Source of the DNA: Planctomycetota bacterium
GTDB taxonomy: Bacteria > Planctomycetota > PLA2 > JAEUHO01
Direction: 5' to 3'
Length of the DNA stretch: 64,000 bases
Assembly (NCBI GenBank): GCA_965223505.1
Contig: CBDCWP010000030.1
Span: forward strand, 32,001 to 96,000
Numbering within the stretch: position 1 is the stretch's first letter; each line of letters opens with the position of its first letter. Of the stretch, positions 34,126 through 45,384 are shown piece by piece. The translations under genes were made by a program, and so were the position numbers. The notes beneath the pieces were generated by a model. The model saw nothing but the letters and a program-made list of their open reading frames with translations. It made no database searches and was not told the origin of the DNA.

Positions 34126-35667
34126 CTAGAACTCCATGAACGCGAACGCCGCGTGGATGGCGAGCACCAGGATCAGCGCCCGCAGCAGGGTGTGGTGAAT
34201 GCCCTTGACGACCTCGTTGGGATAGCGCTTCGGCGCCGTCCCGATGCGATAGGCAACCAGTGCGACGCCCAGTGCGCAACAACTGACCTTGGCGAAGAGC
34301 CATCCCACGTCCGCACCGTGCAATTGGTCCCCATACGCCTCGTGGAAGTAGCGCGCCGAGTAGCCCGGATGGGTCCCGAGGAACACGACCATCGACGTCG
34401 CGTACGAGAGCACCTGTGCCAGGGCCGTCGCAGCCCACGTCGCGACCAGGAGTCCCGTCGCGGTCGGAAGCAGCAGGTGCCGTCGCAGCGGCACCCGCAG
34501 CAGGTGCAGCGCGTCCACCTGTCGCGTCAAGCTCATGTGGCCGAGGTGAGCGGCGACCGCCGCGCCCAGCTTCGCTGCGAGCAGGACCGAGACCATCAAC
34601 GGCACACTGACGCGCGTGTAGATCAGACCGAGGGCGGCCACGATGTCCTCTTGGATCAGAGGTTCGGCGTACTGCCGCTGCGGCATGCGCTCGAAGATGA
34701 AGTACGTGCCGGTGAACGCGGCGAGCACCGCGCTGATTCCGATGAACGCGCCGACGGACGGCGCGACGTCGCGGCGCAGCGCCTTGCGGATGCGGGGCCC
34801 GTCCAGCGCATGGAACAGCCGCGCCCACGCCCAGGGCAAGAACACGAAGGCGCCGGCGTCGAGCAGGACGTCGACGGTCCCGGTCGCGAGAGCGCGCCAA
34901 CCCCGGGCACAACGCGCGACGAACGACGGCCGAACCTGCGGCGCCGCTTCGTCCCCTTCGGCGGTCGACTCGAGCGCGTGGCGAAGCGTTTCGAAGGTCT
35001 CGACGCCGGGCGGCAACACCTGGATGCGCCGCTCGGAAGGATCGATGAACAGCACGACGTCGGCCCAGTCCGCGAACGACTCGTAGTCATGCGTGATGAC
35101 GAGACTTCCGCGAGAGTGGTTCTCCTCGATGGCCTCGACGACCTGGGCGCGCGCTGCGGGATCCAGCCCCGTCGTGGGTTCGTCGTAGACGAGTACGCCG
35201 GCGCCGCGCAGCAGCGTTCGCGCGATGGCGACCCGCATCTGCTCGCCGCCGGAACACTCGGTGACGGGACGCTCGAGGTGTTGGAGCCGCAACCGCGCGG
35301 CCACGTCCTTGCGCCGCGCTTCGTTCTCGTCACCGAACATCAGGTTCTGATCGACGGTCAGGTCGTCGAACAGGCCGAGTGCGTTGAGCTGGAACACGGC
35401 GCCCATGCGTGCGTCGCGCGCCTCGGGGCCTGCGCCGAGAAGCTCGGCGCCGTCCAGCAGGATCGAGCCGGACACGTCGAGCTGCGGACTCGCAGGGCCC
35501 GCAAACCCGAGTAGCAGGCTGCAGAACAGGGACTTGCCCGAGCCGGACGTCCCCACGAGCAGCACGCGACGGCCCTCGGAGAGCTCGAAGCTCGTCGACT
35601 CGAGCAGCGTTCGACCACGCGCCTTGACCGCGAGGTCGACGACGCGCAAGAGCGTCGGGTCCGCCAT
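34126..35667 (-). CDS. ABC ATPase (MlaF-like) fused to an MlaE-type permease
   Basis: Walker A GTSGSGKS, signature CSGGE, Walker B VLVYDE, ITHD; C-terminal AAKLGAAVAAHLGHMSLTRQVDALHLLRVPLRRHLLLP (MlaE-like). Confidence 0.85.
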   Translation of the reverse strand: MADPTLLRVVDLAVKARGRTLLESTSFELSEGRRVLLVGTSGSGKSLFCSLLLGFAGPASPQLDVSGSILLDGAELLGAGPEARDARMGAVFQLNALGLFDDLTVDQNLMFGDENEARRKDVAARLRLQHLERPVTECSGGEQMRVAIARTLLRGAGVLVYDEPTTGLDPAARAQVVEAIEENHSRGSLVITHDYESFADWADVVLFIDPSERRIQVLPPGVETFETLRHALESTAEGDEAAPQVRPSFVARCARGWRALATGTVDVLLDAGAFVFLPWAWARLFHALDGPRIRKALRRDVAPSVGAFIGISAVLAAFTGTYFIFERMPQRQYAEPLIQEDIVAALGLIYTRVSVPLMVSVLLAAKLGAAVAAHLGHMSLTRQVDALHLLRVPLRRHLLLPTATGLLVATWAATALAQVLSYATSMVVFLGTHPGYSARYFHEAYGDQLHGADVGWLFAKVSCCALGVALVAYRIGTAPKRYPNEVVKGIHHTLLRALILVLAIHAAFAFMEF

Positions 35668-36707
35668 CAGTTCGGGTCCGCCATGGGACGTTCGATCAGG
35701 ACGAGCGCGGTCTTCTTGTCGAGCAGCGTCGCCCGCAGCATCGCGGCGAAACGGATGCGCAGTCCGCCGCTCGGTCCGCGGACGACCTCTTCGACGGCCA
35801 TGCGCAGAAGCGACTCGCCTTCGTCCTCGATCGCGTCCTGCTTGCTTGCGTAGACCGGATCGAGCAGCTCGTCCTTGGCCGCGTCGAACAGCTCGGACTT
35901 CACCCACGCGCTGACCTCGGGCACGTGGCTCTTGAGCCCCCGCGCGATGGCCCGCAGAACGCGGGCCTGGTTGACGCTCCACCACGCCGTCGCCGCCTTC
36001 GTCGCCACCGGCATCACCTGCCGCTTGATGCCGCGCTCGTCCCCGCGCACGACCTTCCAGAGCAAGCCGACACGGTCGAGCAGATCGAAGTGCCGGTCCA
36101 CGGCGCGCGCGACGGCGTCCGCGAGCTCGTTGAGCAGCGGCTCCACCTCCTGCATGACCGAAGACCCCATGGCCTTGACCAGCTTGCTCGACTCGGTGTC
36201 CTTGGTCGGATCGATGCGATCGAGGAACGCAGGGAGATTGCGCTCGACTTCGGGATAGAGCTCCTCGTCCCACAAGCGCTCGAGCCGCCGGACGAGCTCC
36301 CGCCCGACACGCTCGGCCGTCTCGGGCGGCACGGCGGTGTGAAACGCGTCCATCATCCCGCGCTTGGGCGGAACCACCCGCACCCGCCACGGCCCTGCCG
36401 GATCTTCGCCGGCGGCGAACCGAACGCGCAGGCGTCCGTCGTCCACCGCGACGACGTGCGCGACGGGCCGCGCCTCGCCGTCGGGCTCGACGAAGAAGAC
36501 GGGCGCGCCGACGTCGACGCCCTTCGTCGTGTCGACCGGCGTGAGCAGATCGTCGTCGCGCTCGGCGCTCAGCCCGCTCAGGAGCTCCGCGGTGATCCGT
36601 TCGGCAGGCCGTGCGACGGAAGGAGACGCGAGGAGCAGGACGAGGGCGAGCATCGCGCCCGCGAGGATGCCGCTGCCGAGCCAAGCCTTGAGTTGCGGGT
36701 TGTTCAC
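35667..36707 (-). CDS. Membrane-anchored protein with a degenerate MCE/MlaD-like segment and helical C-terminus
   Basis: N-terminal TM; GVDVGAPVF...PVAHVVAV resembles the MCE GLxxGxPV...VGxV motif; coupled to the MlaFE fusion. Confidence 0.55.
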   Translation of the reverse strand: MNNPQLKAWLGSGILAGAMLALVLLLASPSVARPAERITAELLSGLSAERDDDLLTPVDTTKGVDVGAPVFFVEPDGEARPVAHVVAVDDGRLRVRFAAGEDPAGPWRVRVVPPKRGMMDAFHTAVPPETAERVGRELVRRLERLWDEELYPEVERNLPAFLDRIDPTKDTESSKLVKAMGSSVMQEVEPLLNELADAVARAVDRHFDLLDRVGLLWKVVRGDERGIKRQVMPVATKAATAWWSVNQARVLRAIARGLKSHVPEVSAWVKSELFDAAKDELLDPVYASKQDAIEDEGESLLRMAVEEVVRGPSGGLRIRFAAMLRATLLDKKTALVLIERPMADPN

Positions 36708-36769: not shown

Positions 36770-37366
36770 TCACGCGTACGGGGCGACGCCCTCGCGCAGA
36801 AGCGCCTGTAGCGCCGTTTCGTGCGTCTCGATCAGCGCGTTCGGCCGCCGGTCGAGCACGACCCGGCCGTCCAGATCCCGGACGACGAACCCCGTGACGC
36901 AGCGCCGGTCCACGTGCACGCTGAAGTCGGTCGCACCCTGGTCGAGCAGCGCCTCGTAGACGGCGAGCCGGTCGCGCTTGGCGGCGAAGACCTCCATCGG
37001 GCCGTCGACGGCGGCGGCCTCCCTCGCCCAGTGCCGCAGCGCGCCCACGTAGTCCTCGGTGTCGGGCAGGGACTGGATCGAGAGTGTGAGTCGCCGCGCG
37101 AAGCGGTCGTAGAGCTGCGTGAACGCTTCGGCACGCAGGGACGCGACCTCGCGCTCCGCCTCCAGGCGCGCGGCGTCCTTCGCCGCCTCGCCGCGCACGC
37201 GACCGAGGTTCTTTGCCGCCTCCGAGAGCTCGCGCACGTGGTCTTCCGCGTCGATCACGAGACGGCGCGCCTCGTTGACGGCCTGATCCTCGGCACGTCG
37301 GCTGCCGCGGTCGGCATCTTCGAGGATGATGTCGACGAGCGCATGGAACGCGGCGTCATGCAACAT
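36770..37366 (-). CDS. V/A-type ATPase subunit E-like protein
   Basis: 198 aa; N-terminal LVDIILEDA coiled coil; C-terminal GFVV...GRVVLD. Confidence 0.65.
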   Translation of the reverse strand: MLHDAAFHALVDIILEDADRGSRRAEDQAVNEARRLVIDAEDHVRELSEAAKNLGRVRGEAAKDAARLEAEREVASLRAEAFTQLYDRFARRLTLSIQSLPDTEDYVGALRHWAREAAAVDGPMEVFAAKRDRLAVYEALLDQGATDFSVHVDRRCVTGFVVRDLDGRVVLDRRPNALIETHETALQALLREGVAPYA

Positions 37367-39278
37367 GGGTTCCCCTCTCCCGGCTCGGCCCGCGGCGCAC
37401 GCGGCGCCGGAACGGCTCGAACGGCTGCGTGAGCTCGCGTCCCCCCAAAGACGTGTCGTAGGGCACGCCGATCGCCACGTGCGCCGCGTCAGCGACCACG
37501 GCGAGCACCCCCACGACGAGGGCGACCGGTACCACGAGCAGCGCGACGGCGCCGGCGTCGGCCCATGCGGCGAAGCCGTACTCGAACAACATCACCGACG
37601 CGCCCCCGACCGCCACGAGCCGCAGCACGCCGACGAGATCGAGGCAGAAGCGCGTCACGAACGCGCGCGCTCCCTCCAGAACGAACACCGCGACGGCGAC
37701 GAGCGGCACGAGGATCCACGCCCACGCGACCGCCGGTACGGCCTCGCCCACGACCGCCGCCGCGAACCCCGCAATCACCGCGTAGCGCAACGTCGTCAGC
37801 AGCGCCGCGCGCGCACGCGCGGCCCGGCCGCCGCGCACCGCGCGAAGCGCGAGCACGGCGCCGTACAGCGCGAACGCGCCCGCGAGGAGGCCGATCACCG
37901 CGAGCACGCCGGCGAACGGCTGCAAGAGAGCCGGCAACGCGCCGGCGCCGAGGTCGAGCGTGTCCACGACGCCCCACCCCTCACCAAACCACGCCGCGCC
38001 GGCATCGCCGAGCGCGCGGCCGATCAGAAGCCCCGCCGCCAACGCGGCGAGGCCGCCGGCTTGCGCCATGATCGCGGTGTGCCGGCGGGGCGAGCCGCGC
38101 CGGGCACGGACGCCGAGCAACGCGCCCGCGATCATCAGCAGCAGGCCGCCGGCCGCGTCGGCCCAAGCCAGGCCGACGGCGACGGGCGCGAAGACGGCGA
38201 GCACGCTTGCGACGCCGACGTCGCCGAAGCGCGACGGCCGCAGCCCTTCGAGCGCGGCGAACGGAACGGCGGCGACGGTGCGCGGAAGCGTCGGGGCGTC
38301 GTCGGCCTCGGCCAGCGGCCGGATCACGATGTGCTTGCCGAACACCTTCGTCATGTGCTCGGCGAGCGGTTCGCCGTCTTCGCGTCGTACGAACACGCGC
38401 GCGGCAGCGACGTGTTCCGTTGCGGCCAGCCGTCCGCGCGCCTCGCGGCGCCCTTCGGCGTCTTCGAGCGAGTCGAGCAGCTGGCGCGCGCGCGCGCCGT
38501 CTTCGCGTACGCGCAGCGTCAAGGCGGCGCGAGCGGCGCCGACCTCGTGCTGCGCGCGGCTGCGCGCTTCGAGCGCTTCCCGCAGCGCGTCTTCGATCAG
38601 CGCGCCTTGCATCGTGGCGGGGAAATCGAACGCGCGCGCGCCGACCGCTTCGGCGATCTGTTCGACGCCGTCGCTCGTGACGGTCGCGTCCGCGGCGCGC
38701 AGCACGAAGACGTGGCTCTTGTCGCCGTCCCGCCGGAGCGGGTCGAGCCGGGCGCGGCGCAGACGCCGGCCCAGTTGCCGCGCCGCGCGTGGCTCGGTGG
38801 GCAGCGCGAGCGCGCGACCGTTGACGGTCGGCTCGTCGGCGGCCTGGAGGGCCTCGACGCCGGCCAGGACGGCGTCGGCGAACTCGTACGACGCATCGGC
38901 GCGCCGCAGCGCCTCGAGCTCGACGTGGATCCGACCGGCGAGCGTGACGGCCTCGTCGCGCAAGGCGAGCAGGTCGGCCTCCCCGATGCCGCCGGGGGCC
39001 ATCGTCCAGTCGGGGCGCCGGCCGGGCGGCTCGTCGACGGCAGTCGGCGGCAGCACGCGCTCGACCGCCTGGAGTGACCGGCCGGCTTCGCTGCGAATCA
39101 GCTCGATGTCCTGCTCGTGCGCGTCGGGCCGCGGGCGTCCGATGCCCGCCTCGCCCTCGAGCCCGTGCAGCGCGTCGCCAAGATGGCAGGTGCCCAGATC
39201 CTGGAGGGCGGCGAGCCAGTCCTCGACGGACGCGCGCGGGCCGAGGATCTCGTAGTGCTGGAAGGGGGCATCGATCAT
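37356..39278 (-). CDS. Divergent V/A-type ATPase subunit I (a)-like protein
   Basis: 640 aa; N-terminal LQDLGTCHL, soluble domain, APTL, then PSRFGD..VLAVFAPVAVGLAWADAAGGLLL and GVLRLVAVG resembling subunit I motifs. Confidence 0.7.
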   Translation of the reverse strand: MIDAPFQHYEILGPRASVEDWLAALQDLGTCHLGDALHGLEGEAGIGRPRPDAHEQDIELIRSEAGRSLQAVERVLPPTAVDEPPGRRPDWTMAPGGIGEADLLALRDEAVTLAGRIHVELEALRRADASYEFADAVLAGVEALQAADEPTVNGRALALPTEPRAARQLGRRLRRARLDPLRRDGDKSHVFVLRAADATVTSDGVEQIAEAVGARAFDFPATMQGALIEDALREALEARSRAQHEVGAARAALTLRVREDGARARQLLDSLEDAEGRREARGRLAATEHVAAARVFVRREDGEPLAEHMTKVFGKHIVIRPLAEADDAPTLPRTVAAVPFAALEGLRPSRFGDVGVASVLAVFAPVAVGLAWADAAGGLLLMIAGALLGVRARRGSPRRHTAIMAQAGGLAALAAGLLIGRALGDAGAAWFGEGWGVVDTLDLGAGALPALLQPFAGVLAVIGLLAGAFALYGAVLALRAVRGGRAARARAALLTTLRYAVIAGFAAAVVGEAVPAVAWAWILVPLVAVAVFVLEGARAFVTRFCLDLVGVLRLVAVGGASVMLFEYGFAAWADAGAVALLVVPVALVVGVLAVVADAAHVAIGVPYDTSLGGRELTQPFEPFRRRVRRGPSRERGTHVA

Positions 39279-39658
39279 TCCGCGACGACCTCCGGCGCCT
39301 CGGCGGGTGCGTCGCGCTCGCCGCACAGCAACGCCATGGCGGCGACGAGTAGCTCGTCCATGCGCGACTCCGCGTCGTCGATCCAACGTCGGACGGCGAG
39401 CCGGGCCTCGCTCACGGCGTCGACGCCGGCGGCCTCGACCTGGCGCAGAGCCTCGCGTTCGCCTTCGATGACGATGTCCCGCAGCTTCTGCTCACCCTCC
39501 TCGCGGATGCGCTTGGCCTCGGCGCGGGCCGCCGCCAGACGCGCCTGGGCGTCGCCCTGCGCCCCCTGCAGCCGCTCACGCGCCCAGGCTTCGACGGCGA
39601 GGAACGCAGGCAGGGCGGAGCGCCCCGGTGTGACGGGCGGGAGGTTGGGTCGCGTCAT
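39275..39658 (-). CDS. V/A-type ATPase subunit H/G-like coiled-coil protein
   Basis: 127-aa Ala/Glu/Arg-rich helical protein whose stop overlaps the subunit I-like start. Confidence 0.55.
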   Translation of the reverse strand: MTRPNLPPVTPGRSALPAFLAVEAWARERLQGAQGDAQARLAAARAEAKRIREEGEQKLRDIVIEGEREALRQVEAAGVDAVSEARLAVRRWIDDAESRMDELLVAAMALLCGERDAPAEAPEVVAE

Positions 39659-39791
39659 GGACGTGGAGCGTACCGGCGGAGCAGGACAGCGTCGGACCGT
39701 AGCGCGCGGCAGCCGACGAAGGCCCCTTGCTCACCGCGCACCCGCCACGACGGCGATCCGGCCAGGCGCCGTCGAGCGGGACGAGCCGCCG

Positions 39792-40712
39792 CTAGCCGCC
39801 GGTGGCGTTCTTCTTCAGCCAGTCGACGAGCTGCTCGCGGACGGACGCGAACTTGCCGTTGACCTTCACGTCGACAGCCTTCAGCAGCGCCTCGACCTCC
39901 TTGCGCTTGTCGGCCGTGGAGCTGTCGTCGTCCTCGACGGCGAACTCGAAGGCGTAGCCGACGTCCTCGCTGATCGACGCCATGTGCGCGTCGATGTAGG
40001 CCGTCAGGCCCTTGCCGGGCTTCTTCGCGATCTTCAGGACCTCCACGAACGCCTCGAGGGCCTTGCGCCACTCCTCGTCGTCGATCGCCGCGAGGGCGAC
40101 CTCCATGTGCGGGAGCGCTTTTTCGAACTTCTTGAAGGTCAACGCTTCGCCCAGCTCCTTCTGAAGGGCTTCGGTCGCCTTCTGAATGCTCTTCGTGACG
40201 AACTGGTCCTTCTCCTCGATGCGGTGCACCTTGCCGTCGGGCGCGATCAGCCACGAGTTCGGGCAGAGCTCGACGAAGGGCACCACCGGCAGCGTCTCGT
40301 CACGAGAGGCATCGGTCTCGACCGCGATGTTGAGGTGGTCGCGGCACGTCAGACCGGGATAGAGCGGGCAGCGCTTGTTCTCGCCGGTCTGGTTCGCGAC
40401 CTCGATCTCTTCGTGCCCGAGCTCGTTGTGCGCAATCAACACGATCACGCTCTCTTCCGCCCACTTGATGAACGACTTGTTGGTCAGCACCGACCGGTAC
40501 TGGTTCGTGCAGCGGCCTCAGAAGTCCTTGTGACGGCTGAAGAAGATCGGCACGTTGCGAACGCGCGCCTCGACCATCGCCGCTTCGTAGCTCGTCATGT
40601 AGCGCAGGTGTGCGCCCTTCGGGTGCTCCTCCGCGAACGCGCCGCCGGCGAACAGGATCGCCGCCGCGATTCCGAGCCAGCAGACCGGCCCGGTCAGTCT
40701 TCGAATCCGCAT
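39792..40712 (-). CDS. Candidate exported thioredoxin-like selenoprotein B (U65-G-R-C), 306 aa
   Basis: GGAGG RBS, ATG 40712, signal peptide ending AFA; EARVRNVPIFFSRHKDF-TGA(40520-40518)-GRCTNQYRSVLTNKSFIKWAEESVIV continues in frame into track ORF 39792-40490. Confidence 0.88.
40485..40502 (-). promoter_or_regulatory. Bacterial SECIS-like hairpin of selenoprotein B
   Basis: mRNA CAGUACC-GGUC-GGUGCUG starting 15 nt after the UGA; G at the first loop position. Confidence 0.7.
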
Positions 40713-40735
40713 GTGACCTCCCGAGACGCCGGCCG

Positions 40736-41668
40736 TCACTTGGCCTTCGCCTCCTTGATCCACTTCTTGATGTCGTCGACCACCGGTAGGTATCCGCGTT
40801 TGAGACGCTTGCCGACGGCGGACTTGAGCTGACCGGCGGCCTTGATCTTGGCCTCCGCGTCGCCCTCACCCTCCTTGAGCTCCTCGAACGCCTCGACGAT
40901 CGCCTCGTTCAGATCGTCGAGCCGCTCCTTGACGATCTCCTTCATGCCGTCCGGCAGCTTCTTGGTGTCCTTCTCGACGTCCGCGTAGGCGGCCAATGCG
41001 GCCTTCCAGTCCATCGTCTCGATCGCCGCGTCGCCCGCGTCGAGCGATGCCACGTACGCCTTGTACTTCTTCATCGGAAGGTGCTTGAGCTTCAGCTTCT
41101 TCAGCCCGGCCTGGGCCATCTCGATCACCTTCTTCGGCTTCGTCTTGTAGGCGTTCGAGACGGTCTCGACCTCGCCGTTGGGCATGACGAACCAGCTCGT
41201 GGGCGTGCTGACCGGCTTCTTGATTTGCGGCAGGCCGGACGCAGACGTCAGCGCCGCGATCTCGTTGGCGATCCCGCGGTGGTCCTCGCACAGGAGACCG
41301 GGGTACTTCGGGCAGCCTTCGACCTTCTCACCGTTTTCGTCTTCGATCTGCGACGGGTGTTCTTCCGTCTCGTGGGCGATGGCCACGATCATGTTCTCGT
41401 TGGCCCACTCGACGAACCCGCCGTCTTGCAGCACCGAACTGTGCTGCGCCTCGCACGGGCCTCAGTTGTCCTTGTGCCAGACGACGTAGATCACGGCGTT
41501 GCGTGCCCGGGCTTCGTACACCGCGTCCTCGTAGGACTTCGCGTAGCGAAGGTGCGTCTCTTTCTCCTCCTTGGCGAGGCCGCTGCCGAGCGAACCGAAC
41601 ACGGCCGCCGCGGCGACGCAGAACAACGCGCAGGCGAAGCGGCGATGCCATGCAAGACGGTGGCTCAT
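40736..41668 (-). CDS. Candidate exported thioredoxin-like selenoprotein A (U69-G-P-C), 310 aa
   Basis: ATG 41668, signal peptide; EARARNAVIYVVWHKDN-TGA(41464-41462)-GPCEAQHSSVLQDGGFVEWANENMIV continues in frame into track ORF 40736-41434. Confidence 0.88.
41428..41447 (-). promoter_or_regulatory. Bacterial SECIS-like hairpin of selenoprotein A
   Basis: mRNA GCAGCAC-AGUUCG-GUGCUGC starting 14 nt after the UGA; perfect 7-bp stem; G at the second loop position. Confidence 0.72.
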
Positions 41669-41747
41669 GAGCGGACTCCGGGCACGAGGATCGCCGATGG
41701 GCGGCGCGGGCGCCAGGGGGCAGCCCCCGCCGGCCCCCGGCAGATAG

Positions 41748-41773
41748 GACGGTTGTCGCCCGAAGGGGGTTCC
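41748..41773 (-). promoter_or_regulatory. Possible ECF-sigma promoter (GGAAC-N17-CGTC)
   Basis: Minus strand GGAAC-CCCCTTCGGGCGACAAC-CGTC, about 80 nt upstream of ATG 41668. Confidence 0.45.
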
Positions 41774-41813
41774 ATCGGCCGCGGGCGGCCCGCCGAGGCT
41801 CGGTTTCGAGCGC

Positions 41814-43127
41814 CTAGCGCAGCGGGACGTCCTTGAGCACGACTTCGAGCTCCCCGTCCGACTCGCGGTCGAACCAGGTCACCCAGATCGCCTCCGGCTT
41901 GCCGATGCCCGCGCCGTAGGCCCGGCCGGTGAGGTTCAAGGTGCCGTCGGCGCTGTGCGAGCGCCCCCCCATCACGTGCAGCCGCTGTTCACGGCCGCCT
42001 GCCCAGCGCACGAAGATCTGCGCCGTCGTTCGGGCGAGCTGCTTGGGGAGTACGGCCACCAGCTCGACGACCCAGGACCCGGTCTGGTTCTCCACCGGCT
42101 CGAAGGAGCGCAGCTCCACCGACCCTTCGGTGCCGGGCTCGACGTCCTTCCCGTCCTTGGTGCGGCAGCGCGGCAGCTTCTCGATGTCGTCGAACCGGAC
42201 GGTGTGCGCCACATGGCGGATGCGCATCGGGAACTTCACGACGAGCTTCGCGAGCTTCTCGTGAAAGACGTCCGTCGTCGGTTGGAAGGTCACATTGACC
42301 GAGCGCGAGGATTGCATCGGTGAGACGCCGTACGTGACGCGCCCTTTGGTGGTCGCTCGAAACGCGTTTCCTGCGGTGTCCTCGGCCGCGGTCACCGTCG
42401 GCGTGCTGAGCTGCGAGACCGCGACGCTGGGAACCCACCAGACGTCGAGGGTCAACGAGTAGTGCGGCTTGGCCGTGCTGGTGAGCGCGCGCGTGCTGGT
42501 GACCTCGGTGACCCGCACGAGCACGGGTCCGGCCGCCGCCTGCGGCACGACGACGGCCTCCGCATCGCGGTGGACGAGACGCGCGTGCCCGGCGCCGTCG
42601 AACGGCCCTTTCATCGAGAGGTCCGCCCGCTTCAGCAACATGCGCAGCGCTTCGAAGTAGGGCTCGTTCTCGATCTCGCCCCCGCTCTCGGGCGGCGTCC
42701 AGTCGTCGGGCATCTCGAAGCGGCCACCGAACTGACGCCCCAGGTCCTTGAGCGTCGCGTCGGAAGCGGGCAGCGTCACGCGGCCGATCGCCGCCAGGTC
42801 GCCCGGCGCGACCGGCGCGGTCTTCGTCGGCTCGCCGCCGAGCAGCAGGCGCACCGTGCGACGCACCTCCGGGTCCTCGTCGTCGGCGACGGCTTCGAGG
42901 AGGTCGCGCGCCTTCGTGCCATAGCGCTGCAGTCCGTGACGGGCCGTCTGACGCGTCGCGAACGAATCGGAGCGCAGATCCTCGATCCACTGCTTGACGT
43001 GCGTGCGCAGTGCCTCGCCCTGGAGCGCGGGCGGGATCTGCGGCTCGTCGGCCCGCGCGTCCGGTATGCGAACCGGCGCCGAGAGGGCGCACGCCAGGAG
43101 AAACAGAAGTCCGGCGCGGCGGTTCAT
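41814..43127 (-). CDS. Secreted hypothetical protein with an N-terminal HEAT-like repeat
   Basis: Signal peptide; IEDLRSDSFATRQTARHGL...DEDPEVRR; beta-rich C-terminus. Confidence 0.7.
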   Translation of the reverse strand: MNRRAGLLFLLACALSAPVRIPDARADEPQIPPALQGEALRTHVKQWIEDLRSDSFATRQTARHGLQRYGTKARDLLEAVADDEDPEVRRTVRLLLGGEPTKTAPVAPGDLAAIGRVTLPASDATLKDLGRQFGGRFEMPDDWTPPESGGEIENEPYFEALRMLLKRADLSMKGPFDGAGHARLVHRDAEAVVVPQAAAGPVLVRVTEVTSTRALTSTAKPHYSLTLDVWWVPSVAVSQLSTPTVTAAEDTAGNAFRATTKGRVTYGVSPMQSSRSVNVTFQPTTDVFHEKLAKLVVKFPMRIRHVAHTVRFDDIEKLPRCRTKDGKDVEPGTEGSVELRSFEPVENQTGSWVVELVAVLPKQLARTTAQIFVRWAGGREQRLHVMGGRSHSADGTLNLTGRAYGAGIGKPEAIWVTWFDRESDGELEVVLKDVPLR

Positions 43128-43143
43128 GGGTTCTTCGACGGTG

Positions 43144-45177
43144 CTAGACGGCGACCTGTTCCTTCTTGTGCCTCGCGATGATGTCGTTGGCCAGGTGCGA
43201 CGGCACCGGGTCGTAGTGGGCGAGCTTGAAGCCGTAGTCGCCCTCACCGGCGGTGAGGGAGCGCAGCTCCGTGCTGTAGTTCATCATCTCGGCGAGCGGC
43301 ACCTCGGCCTTGATCTGCGCCATGTCCTCTTCCTGGTTCATGCCCAGGATGCGGCCGCGGCGGCTGTTCAGGTCGCCGGAGATGTCGCCCATGAAGCGCG
43401 ACGGCACCTCGATCTCGACCTCCATGATCGGCTCGAGCAGAACCGGCCGGGCGGTCTCCACGGCGGCGCGGAACGCCGCGGCCCCCGCGAGCTTGAACGA
43501 GAACTCGTCGCTATCGACGTCGTGGAACTTGCCGAAATGCACGATGGCGCACACGTCGACGAACGGGTAGCCCGCCAGGACCCCCTTCGAGCACTGCTCG
43601 ACGACGCCCTTCTCGACCGCCGGAATGAACTGACGCGGAATCGCGCCGCCGACGACCTCGTCCTTGTACTCGAAGCCCTCGCCGCGTCCCTTGGGCTCGA
43701 CCTTGAGGTGCACCTCGGCGAACTGGCCCCGGCCGCCCGACTGCTTCTTGTGCCGGTGCATGCCCTCACCCTTCGCGGTGATCGTCTCCAGGTACGGGAT
43801 GCGCGGCTGGCGCGTGACGGTCTCGACCTTCTTGCGCGCGAGACGCTTCAGCATGATGTCGACGTGCAGCGCGCTCATGCCGCGCACGACCATCTCGCCG
43901 GTGGATTCCTCGCGCTCGGCGATGAAGGACGCGTCGCCGTCGGCGAGCTTGTGCAGCTCCGGTCCGAGCTTCGCCTCGTCGTTGCGGTTCTTCGGTTCGA
44001 TGGCCAGGGTGACCTTCGGGTACGGCGCCGGGATCGCGGCGAACGTCCAGTCGGCGCTGCCGTCGGTGATCGTGTCGCCGATCTGGACGTCCTCGACCTT
44101 CGCGACCGCGACGAGATCGCCCGCCGACGCGTTGGGGACGGCCTGCATCTCCTTGCCCTGGGTGTCGAGCAGATCGCCGATGCGCTCGGTCTTGCCCGTG
44201 CGGGTCACCACGAACTGCGTCTTGCCCGGCAGGGAGCCGCTCCAAACCCGCAGGTACGACAGCTTGCCGACGTGCGGGTCGATCTGGATCTTCCAGACCT
44301 GCGCGGAGAACGGCCCGTCGGCCTTCACGGCGACGTCGTCGCCGGCCTTGTTGGTCGCCTTGCGCATGACCTCGCCGTGGCGGTTCGTGGCGTGCGGGCA
44401 GTCCTTCGTGATGAAGTCGAGCAGCTTGCGCATGCCCACGCCCTTCTCGGCGGACACGTGCAGGACCGGGACGATGTTGCCCTGGCGCAGCGCGCGCGGG
44501 AACGCGTCGGCGAGCTCCTGCTTGGAGACCTCGCCGGTCTCGAAGTAGCGCTCGAGCAGATCGTCGTCGCACTCGACCACGCGGTCGGTGGCCTGCTGCC
44601 GGTACTCCGCGGCCTGCATCTCGAGGTCGTCGCTCAGGCCTTCGGCAAAGATGTCGTAGACCTCCGAGGCGCTCGAGCCGAACGCGTCCGGCAGGTTCAT
44701 CGGCACGGCGCGCTCGCCCATCGCCGACTGGATCGACGCGTAGAGCTCGTCCGGCACGATGTTCTCGCCCTCGATGCGCGTGATCAGCACCACGCACGCC
44801 AGGCCCTGGTCGCGCGCGTAGCGGAACAGCCGGCGCGTGGCGACGCCGACGCCGTCGTGGGCGTTGACGCAGATGATGGCCGTCTCCGAGGCCGCGAGGC
44901 CGCAGACCGCCTCGCCGACGAAGTCGAGCGCGCCGGGCGTGTCGACGATGTTGACCCGCTTGCCTTCCCACGTGAGGTGCATCGGCGTGGCGATGATCGA
45001 CTGCTGGCGTTCCTTCTCGTCCTCGTCCCAGTCCGAAACCGTGTTCTTCTCCGGCACGCTGCCCTTGCGGGAGACGGCCTTCGCGAGGTGGAGCATCGTC
45101 TCGGCGAGCGTCGTCTTCCCCGCCCCACCGGCGCCGACAAGGGTCACATTGCGTACATCGTCAGGGCTCTTGGCCAT
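43144..45177 (-). CDS. fusA: Elongation factor G paralog (EF-G II / EF-G-like)
   Basis: GAGGAGKTT, RQQSI, DTPGALDF, KKQSGGRGQF, FHDVDSDEFSF, LLEPIM; start ATG 45177. Confidence 0.9.
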   Translation of the reverse strand: MAKSPDDVRNVTLVGAGGAGKTTLAETMLHLAKAVSRKGSVPEKNTVSDWDEDEKERQQSIIATPMHLTWEGKRVNIVDTPGALDFVGEAVCGLAASETAIICVNAHDGVGVATRRLFRYARDQGLACVVLITRIEGENIVPDELYASIQSAMGERAVPMNLPDAFGSSASEVYDIFAEGLSDDLEMQAAEYRQQATDRVVECDDDLLERYFETGEVSKQELADAFPRALRQGNIVPVLHVSAEKGVGMRKLLDFITKDCPHATNRHGEVMRKATNKAGDDVAVKADGPFSAQVWKIQIDPHVGKLSYLRVWSGSLPGKTQFVVTRTGKTERIGDLLDTQGKEMQAVPNASAGDLVAVAKVEDVQIGDTITDGSADWTFAAIPAPYPKVTLAIEPKNRNDEAKLGPELHKLADGDASFIAEREESTGEMVVRGMSALHVDIMLKRLARKKVETVTRQPRIPYLETITAKGEGMHRHKKQSGGRGQFAEVHLKVEPKGRGEGFEYKDEVVGGAIPRQFIPAVEKGVVEQCSKGVLAGYPFVDVCAIVHFGKFHDVDSDEFSFKLAGAAAFRAAVETARPVLLEPIMEVEIEVPSRFMGDISGDLNSRRGRILGMNQEEDMAQIKAEVPLAEMMNYSTELRSLTAGEGDYGFKLAHYDPVPSHLANDIIARHKKEQVAV

Positions 45178-45384
45178 AGCGCTCTCCAGCCGCGAATCAG
45201 GGGTCCTGGGGATACCGGCAACGTCGGGAGCGGTCAACCTGTGACAGCCCCGGGCCCCCGATCTTCTGGGGTTTTACGCCGTCTTGCGACCTTTGCGCCC
45301 GTCGGACGGAGGCCGATGTTGGGACGCCCCCGCGGCCCCCCTACACTCGCGCCCGCGGGCGGAGGGGACGCCCGCAGGAGTGTG

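Follow-up and report, generated by a model that had tools for sequence, protein, structure and literature searches.

The DNA analysed here, referred to as the window, is a 64,000-nucleotide stretch of a Planctomycetota bacterium (GenBank assembly GCA_965223505.1, contig CBDCWP010000030.1, positions 32,001 to 96,000). Its minus strand carries two tandem genes, denoted gene A and gene B, that appear as four separate open reading frames (ORFs) in the ORF list (Table 1). A first-pass annotation of the sequence had proposed that each short 5′ ORF ends in a TGA lying in frame with the long ORF behind it, and the ORF list and coordinates agree with that proposal. When TGA is translated as selenocysteine (Sec, U), both frames are uninterrupted, with one in-frame TGA in each gene, and the read-through strings of the annotation are reproduced: VVWHKDN-U-GPC-EAQHSSVL in gene A and FSRHKDF-U-GRC-TNQYRSVL in gene B. 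The A and B proteins share 34% identity over 293 residues (E 3e-45), in an alignment that crosses the TGA, with the TGA of each gene at the same column, also as claimed. The best explanation is a pair of intact, tandem, anciently duplicated selenoprotein genes, each mis-split by gene callers.

A GGAG sequence lies 8 nt 5′ of the gene A ATG. The gene B ATG at 40712 is 23 nt past the gene A stop, with GGGAGG upstream at a 4-nt spacer. Counted from this ATG, the Sec of gene B is residue 65, and counted from a GTG at 40763 it is U82. Both proteins begin with a putative signal sequence, and a hydrophobic N-terminus is found in 28 of 28 homologues. The terminator of gene A is also a TGA, the same codon as that for Sec 242 codons earlier; no hairpin resembling a selenocysteine insertion sequence (SECIS) is apparent after this terminal TGA.

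Table 1. Positions of the two genes, their predicted elements and the neighbouring features, in window coordinates unless another locus is named.
Feature	Position	Strand	Details
Called ORF, 5′ part of gene A	41462..41668	minus	68 aa, ends in TGA
Called ORF, 3′ part of gene A	40736..41434	minus	232 aa
Called ORF, 5′ part of gene B	40518..40763	minus	81 aa, ends in TGA
Called ORF, 3′ part of gene B	39792..40490	minus	232 aa
Gene A, predicted selenoprotein	41668-40736	minus	310 aa; ATG 41668-41666, stop TGA 40738-40736
Gene A predicted Sec codon UGA	41462..41464	minus	residue 69, position 1 of U-G-P-C
Gene A SECIS-like hairpin	41428..41447	minus	7-bp stem GCAGCAC/GUGCUGC, 6-nt loop AGUUCG, -12.8 kcal/mol, UGA-loop 21 nt
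Gene A putative signal peptide or signal anchor	41573..41668	minus	~residues 1-32; basic n-region, hydrophobic stretch, ...GLA followed by KEE
Gene A thioredoxin-fold domain (model)	41093..41557	minus	~residues 38-192; U69-x-x-C72, P156, H99, H104, C119, C127, H130
Gene A C-terminal five-helix Lys-rich domain (model)	40742..41074	minus	~residues 199-309; alone folds at pLDDT 93
Gene B, predicted selenoprotein	40712-39792	minus	306 aa; ATG 40712-40710, stop TAG 39794-39792
Gene B predicted Sec codon UGA	40518..40520	minus	position 1 of U-G-R-C
Gene B SECIS-like hairpin	40485..40502	minus	CAGUACC-GGUC-GGUGCUG, 7 bp (one U-G pair), 4-nt loop, -10.6 kcal/mol, UGA-loop 22 nt
Gene B putative signal peptide	40632..40712	minus	MRIRRLTGPVCWLGIAAAILFAGGAFA followed by EE
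Secreted 439-aa protein	41814..43133	minus	upstream of gene A; Pfam HEAT_2 21.5 bits, cut-off 27.7
EF-G-like GTPase	43144-45237	minus	full length, all five EF-G domains; adjoins the cluster, syntenic in relatives
127-aa and 676-aa ORFs	37356-39658	minus	3′ of gene B; conserved, syntenic in at least 4 related genomes
Long ORF	34129-36684	minus	ABC_tran and MlaE in the C-terminal 500 residues; looks like an MlaF-MlaE fusion
FGE-sulfatase/thioredoxin-like (Cys) fusion	G000:C10:40446-41390		single 577-aa open frame, outside the window

One line of evidence for Sec is the conservation of the TGA codon itself. Query P0001 has matches in 43 of 61 related genomes, and almost every strong match has exactly one TGA. 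A script applied to 20 fetched loci picked 30 U-x-x-C ORFs, two of which were spurious, off-frame and dropped, leaving 28 genes from 19 genomes (alignment A2). The TGA occupies one invariant column in all 28, which bears out the earlier argument that the TGA shared by A and B is unlikely to be the product of two chance mutations or errors. Invariant residues 5′ of it are A49, R56, and H65, and those from the TGA on are U69, C72, S78, V79, H99, H104, C119, Y122, G124, C127, H130, P156, and P163. Another 24 Sec forms, from 20 further loci of divergent subfamilies, have the TGA at the same motif position, for example in HSHGFYUGPCWGMHRSVL and HSHGSTUGPC. Across a sample of the phylum, the family profile matches 90 of 301 Planctomycetota genomes (E≤1e-8), with both Sec and Cys forms present; 27 of the best 30 matches contain one TGA.

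Cys homologues at the TGA, the Sec genes selA, selB, selC, and selD, and the underlying sequence data had been named in the first-pass annotation as checks, and each of them supports Sec. Among 20 fetched loci of stop-free relatives, 4 gave no high-scoring segment pair (HSP) over the TGA column, and the other 16 all have Cys there, as CGPC, CPPC, CGRC, or CGQC. Full-length Cys orthologues occur among the database representatives (P0014, with HKDECGRC, P0015, P0016, and P0021). The closest Cys relative of the B type, also HKDECGRC (L053, G020:C4:217192-219048), aligns as two HSPs in different frames, which suggests a frameshift or assembly error in that genome. At G230:C4:214282-216212 a tandem pair has one stop-free copy and a neighbour with one TGA; if confirmed, this genome carries neighbouring Cys and Sec forms. 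A quick maximum-likelihood tree of 61 sequences (48 Sec and 13 Cys, picked by regular expression so that some genes were left out) needs at least 3 changes between Sec and Cys. Gene A groups with A-type genes from other genera in an all-Sec clade of 7 sequences (support 95); gene B belongs to another clade, also all-Sec (support 100). On this tree, the A/B duplication predates those genera.

The source genome (5.15 Mb in 44 contigs, 92% complete) encodes the whole Sec system. A tRNA-Sec is found above cut-off at 69.2 bits and is called tRNA-SeC with anticodon tca by ARAGORN, and selB (335.7 bits), selA (507.2 bits), and selD (338.1 bits) all score above their curated cut-offs. The selD gene, which lies directly 3′ of selA on the same strand (G000:C8:36815-40732), is itself a selenoprotein gene with one in-frame TGA in the context GAGG-U-AAK. 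Logan contigs from runs X1 and X2 cover both TGA codons of the window with zero differences. UGA is very probably decoded as Sec in both genes, making them real selenoprotein genes.

A hairpin follows each UGA, starting 15 nt 3′ of it, and its usual form is CAGCACC-GGUC-GGUGCUG. The sequence AC[C/G]GGUC[C/G]GU stands at a fixed distance from UGA in 27 of 28 genes. In alignment A1, 91.3% of the cells pair, compared with 16–50% in controls with the 3′ partners slid by 1–3 columns. Changes on both sides of the stem occur in 3 of 7 pairs, namely C-G to U-A (8 sequences), G-C to A-U (1 sequence), and C-G to G-C (1 sequence), and the last swap is seen again in several genes from other subfamilies. 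Covariation scores 0.169; shuffled alignments average 0.081, and none of 500 shuffles reached the observed value. The mean energy of a 27-nt window is -10.3 kcal/mol in Sec forms (n=44) and -6.5 kcal/mol in Cys forms (n=16), among sequences chosen by regular expression, with some genes dropped, including gene A of the window. The hairpin sequence also supplies the codons for an H/Y-R-S-V-L peptide; Cys forms have other residues at this site (e.g., MHSAVM), and the HRSV-encoding hairpin is found in none of them.

The hairpin is presumably a SECIS-type recoding signal for SelB. Like the general bacterial SECIS (bSECIS), it is short, lies within the ORF, and has a small apical loop beginning with G. 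The bSECIS model in PMC13188914 (section 5) has four constraints, with a spacing of 16–37 nt between UGA and loop, and the A and B hairpins fall within the constraints given there for loop size, stem length, a G early in the loop, spacing (21–22 nt), and energy. Comparison with the E. coli fdhF-type element shows differences: the bulged U is not seen in the 7-bp stem here, and the element is near base-for-base constant across paralogues of 25–35% protein identity, fixing the peptide HRSVL. The loop of the fdhF SECIS is GGUC too.

The fold of the proteins was examined with an AlphaFold2 model of gene A, built on alignment A2 with U read as C (predicted local distance difference test, pLDDT, 89; predicted template-modelling score 0.82). 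An N-terminal hydrophobic helix (7–23, low pLDDT) is read as the signal peptide. The core consists of strand 59–64, U69 just before helix 70–80, strand 93–98, an inserted hairpin at 107–117, and helix 127–139, and the invariant P156 precedes strand 157–161 and may well be the cis-Pro of the thioredoxin fold. The arrangement of a redox-type thioredoxin fold is thereby found in the model: a beta-alpha-beta core, the motif at the N-terminus of helix 1, and a Pro before strand 3. The thioredoxin-like layout and the helical, Lys-rich C-terminal domain described in the first-pass annotation both reappear, with the Sec residue at the canonical active-site position and a helical tail containing 18% lysine in A and 13% in B. 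Residues directly before the cis-Pro adjoin the active site in thioredoxin folds. In 9 of 10 B-type genes an extra Cys stands right before the invariant proline (LCPNSW; 40220-40240 in the window), which could be a third redox residue.

Structural comparisons place the domain among proteins of the Thioredoxin_7/DsbH type (PF13899, PF03190), which is the best match by fold and includes Chlamydia DsbH (2ju5), AGR2/AGR3, ERp19, and DsbD-gamma, all secreted or periplasmic. Matches to thioredoxin folds in VIA-align span Z 9–11.6, led by DsbH 2ju5 (Z 11.6, root-mean-square deviation (rmsd) 5.7, 134 aligned), AGR3 3ph9 (Z 11.0, rmsd 2.6, 113 aligned), and a UAS domain (Z 10.5). The top Foldseek matches are a Thermus thioredoxin, a Bacteroides DsbD-C-like domain, DsbH, DsbD-gamma, and ERp19/AGR2, all at E >1e-3, and the A2 profile finds AGR2 among Protein Data Bank (PDB) sequences at E ~1e-3 with H-x-D-x-C in common. 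The DsbH/AGR-type matches listed have Cys, or CxxS in AGR2, whereas A and B have Sec; they are also single domains of ~130–150 aa that lack both the C-x7-C-x2-H insertion and the helical tail of A and B. DsbH/AGR-type domains are not known to occur in a Sec form. The same overall layout, an N-terminal thioredoxin fold followed by an alpha-helical repeat domain, is found in the CnoX/YbbN chaperedoxins, whose C-terminal domain consists of tetratricopeptide repeats (TPR). Their structures 3qou and 3qdn both turn up in the fold searches, but superpose weakly (for 3qdn, Z 8.3 and rmsd 7.7 over 155 residues; Foldseek template-modelling score 0.24–0.26 for both). CnoX/YbbN proteins are cytoplasmic and have Cys or Ser rather than Sec. 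The C-terminal domain alone, compared with ~48,000 chains, gives generic alpha-repeat or designed-protein matches (best Z 9.0), below the informative level. Apolipoprotein-like hits for the tail in PDB profiles (E ~0.02, no stretch passing) were taken as compositional and set aside.

UxxC proteins of the thioredoxin fold are the commonest type among predicted bacterial selenoproteins. The types catalogued in PMC13188914, Table 1, are PF00085, PF13098, TlpA cd02966, redoxin PF08534, DsbA-like, and DsbG-like. With these, A and B have in common the thioredoxin fold, Sec in place of the first Cys of CxxC at the N-terminus of helix 1, a hairpin directly 3′ of UGA, and Cys homologues; many of the catalogued proteins are also exported. 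Unlike them, the A/B family has an H-H-C-C-H insertion and a helical C-terminal domain of ~115 aa, and none of their models match, with PF13098 reaching E≤0.01 in 6 of 28 members. The Trx7/PDZ selenoprotein NF041199 is of the Thioredoxin_7 type by name, but has CxxU (Sec second) and a PDZ domain, and gives no match at E≤1. Neither protein is matched at that threshold by any selenoprotein or thioredoxin model of NCBIfam, including SaoT NF040730, GOS_C NF045500, HUIPC NF047660, and VPGUxxT NF041383. AhpC-TSA reaches only gene A, at 16.5 bits (cut-off 26), and is found at E≤0.01 in 1 of 28 members, which places the proteins outside AhpC-TSA/Redoxin. A peroxidase role was considered and rejected, as the TxxU/UxxT motif is absent and the weak AhpC-TSA match is the sole one of peroxiredoxin type.

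The first-pass annotation had left the family unassigned and perhaps undescribed, a view that still stands. Of the 119 prokaryotic selenoprotein families in Table 1 of the 2026 review PMC13188914, the accessible entries hold no Thioredoxin_7 UxxC family, the sole Thioredoxin_7-named one being the CxxU/PDZ protein, and PF13899, DsbH, and Planctomycet are not found in the searchable text. A full-text literature search led to PMC4807772, which treats planctomycete selenoproteins (two planctomycetes) and names FdhA and FmdB as examples; the family of A and B was not found by this search. As far as tested, A and B represent an uncatalogued family of a well-known kind of selenoprotein.

In public databases the close relatives appear in truncated form. 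All 10 database relatives of query P0001 (the window's own P0003 excluded) are 227–240 aa long at 74–76% query coverage, and the sole named entry among them is ‘MAG: hypothetical protein ... Planctomycetota bacterium’. A related-loci search with P0002 gave two loci, both ‘MAG: Planctomycetota bacterium’. The profile search of 1.84 billion representatives returned 985 clusters at E≤1e-3, 209 at 1e-10, and 34 at 1e-30. Among the best 150 representatives, 63 are without the N-terminus, 46 of them starting at reference positions 74–82, just past the TGA; the 87 that cover the active-site columns have C..C in 39 cases and have lost the motif in 48.

Taken together, the probability is roughly 0.85 that A and B are true selenoproteins that are exported, have a thioredoxin fold and bear Sec in its redox motif; the details of their function are less certain. 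Several points weigh against this assignment. Sec insertion, export, and activity are computational predictions. The Pfam Thioredoxin_7 model scores gene A at 26.5 bits and gene B at 24.1 bits, short of the gathering score of 27; since it matches 28 of 28 family members at E≤0.01 (best 4.4e-9), A and B are related to Thioredoxin_7 but formally outside it. The gene A loop, AGUUCG, is the sole exception to GGUC among the 28 genes. In DNA this rich in G+C, the 71 nt around each UGA do not fold more stably than their dinucleotide shuffles (z -0.85 and +0.22), so the case for the hairpin comes from position, loop sequence, and covariation, not energy. Rfam over 39000-43000 gave two chance-level hits and none to a SECIS family. 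Because the hairpin also codes for protein, selection for the HRSVL peptide could account for some of its conservation. Runs X1 and X2 derive from a single sample, possibly the one that was assembled, and a third run, X3, covers neither TGA. With respect to function, all 48 representatives lacking CxxC keep C119, C127, and H130, so the core role of the wider family may not be disulfide exchange.

Three explanations would remove Sec altogether. Were the TGAs true stops, the genes would be decayed, or each locus would make an exported peptide of ~65 aa and a 232-aa protein. Gene callers and public databases do annotate just the 3′ ORFs, and the TGA terminator of gene A is of the same kind. This is nevertheless very improbable: the TGA column is kept in the 28 close and 24 distant genes with the protein conserved on both sides, the modelled thioredoxin fold requires both halves for its strand 1 and helix 1, Cys orthologues occur as one full-length protein, and the 3′ ORFs alone would be without a signal peptide. 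Suppression or an altered genetic code, with UGA read as a standard amino acid (Trp, Cys, or Gly), would fit the frame, which is open under any TGA-sense code, but is extremely improbable. The organism uses TGA as a stop, because TGA ends gene A; a complete Sec system is present, the position is that of the catalytic Cys of CxxC in relatives, and the SECIS-type hairpin accompanies TGA forms and is absent from Cys forms. That the TGAs are sequencing or assembly errors for TGC or TGT has a next to negligible chance. It draws on the general error rate of metagenome assemblies alone and on the covering runs coming from one sample, and against it stand the same codon in independently assembled genomes, from at least 19 species in the close clade, and the agreement of the Logan contigs.

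A different alternative accepts the selenoproteins as genuine but gives them as their main job the binding or transfer of a metal or metalloid (Cu, Zn, Hg, Se) by U-x-x-C and the invariant His and Cys residues. All 28 Sec genes have H65, H99, H104, C119, C127, and H130 unchanged around U-x-x-C. C119, C127, and H130 are also kept in 117 of 134 covering representatives among the best 150, including every one lacking CxxC, but in only 21 of the 39 that have it, so that the C-C-H motif is missing from 18. The H-H-C-C-H motif is thus often preserved better than the redox motif. In the model, C127-x2-H130 begins a helix directly after a beta-hairpin, which would correspond to a common zinc-site geometry. 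Among 13 scanned proteins, 6 show a distant Cys relative (TCGQCDR) joined to the end of an FGE-sulfatase domain (FGE, formylglycine-generating enzyme), and the source genome has 36 FGE-sulfatase domain matches, one of them fused to a Cys-form module (Table 1). FGE is a copper enzyme. H65 and D67, however, also stand at the aligned positions of human AGR2, which makes them traits of the Thioredoxin_7 family that need not be ligands. The pairing of U-G-P-C with an invariant Pro ahead of strand 3 is classical for redox proteins, and no metal-binding family of Pfam or NCBIfam matches. Metal handling as the main job is unlikely. The five residues H99, H104, C119, C127, and H130 probably form either a structural, Zn-like metal site or a disulfide-braced insertion, with the metal site itself being a tentative choice at somewhat less than even odds, drawn from secondary structure and conservation.

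The reading preferred here is that A and B are most likely periplasmic selenol/thiol-disulfide oxidoreductases; an exported redox function is moderately favoured. SelB with Sec-tRNA would recognize the hairpin while the ribosome is at UGA, and the SelA/SelB/SelC/SelD system would decode the codon. The products would then be exported through the N-terminal signal peptide. Sec is more reactive than Cys in such motifs. Sec69 would be the attacking nucleophile of U-G-x-C and Cys72 the resolving partner, cycling between selenylsulfide and selenol/thiol and exchanging with client disulfides, while the helical C-terminal domain may bind a client or partner. The U-G-P-C motif of A makes a reductase- or isomerase-like role the more likely one. 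With its DsbD/CcdA-type and VKOR genes, the genome offers a periplasmic electron donor or acceptor. A more elaborate proposal is quite improbable: A and B as the founding Sec members of a Planctomycetota-wide family with a Thioredoxin_7-like fold, an H-H-C-C-H metal site, and a TPR-like tail, delivering reducing equivalents or metal to periplasmic FGE-type enzymes or other FGE-sulfatase-domain oxidases, and acting as a heterodimer or two-step relay. If true, the use of selenium would be linked to the maturation of sulfatases in planctomycetes rich in these enzymes.

With A and B, the bacterial selenoproteome gains a well-supported family from a phylum that selenoprotein surveys have scarcely reached. 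They also expose a systematic annotation error, in that the database relatives of Sec forms are truncated, as ‘hypothetical protein’, among the matches listed. The near-invariant GGUC hairpin with its compensatory changes provides a clean, lineage-specific SECIS-like signature that could help to find further Planctomycetota selenoproteins. The H-H-C-C-H motif and the FGE-sulfatase fusions give a testable lead beyond generic disulfide exchange.

The neighbourhood of the two genes, in order along the minus strand, consists of the EF-G-like gene, the 439-aa protein, gene A, gene B, the 127-aa ORF, the 676-aa ORF, further ORFs, and the MlaF-MlaE fusion, and this order recurs in several genera. The 439-aa protein has a single Cys in its mature part, and its gene may share a transcript with the two selenoprotein genes. 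Of the 26 genomes with this gene, 14 have it immediately upstream of a family member on the same strand. The gene was found only in the window's own taxonomic family (25 of 28 genomes, 0 of 32 elsewhere); it occurs without a family match in two genomes (G005 and G014) and on a different contig in a third (G008). Given this restriction to one taxonomic family and these exceptions, the linkage is suggestive at best. The EF-G-like gene may be an EF-G paralogue. No Pfam match was found for the 127-aa and 676-aa ORFs. The 5′ part of the MlaF-MlaE ORF overlaps a conserved 346-aa ORF in another frame (35667-36707), and because of this overlap its true start is probably near 35650.

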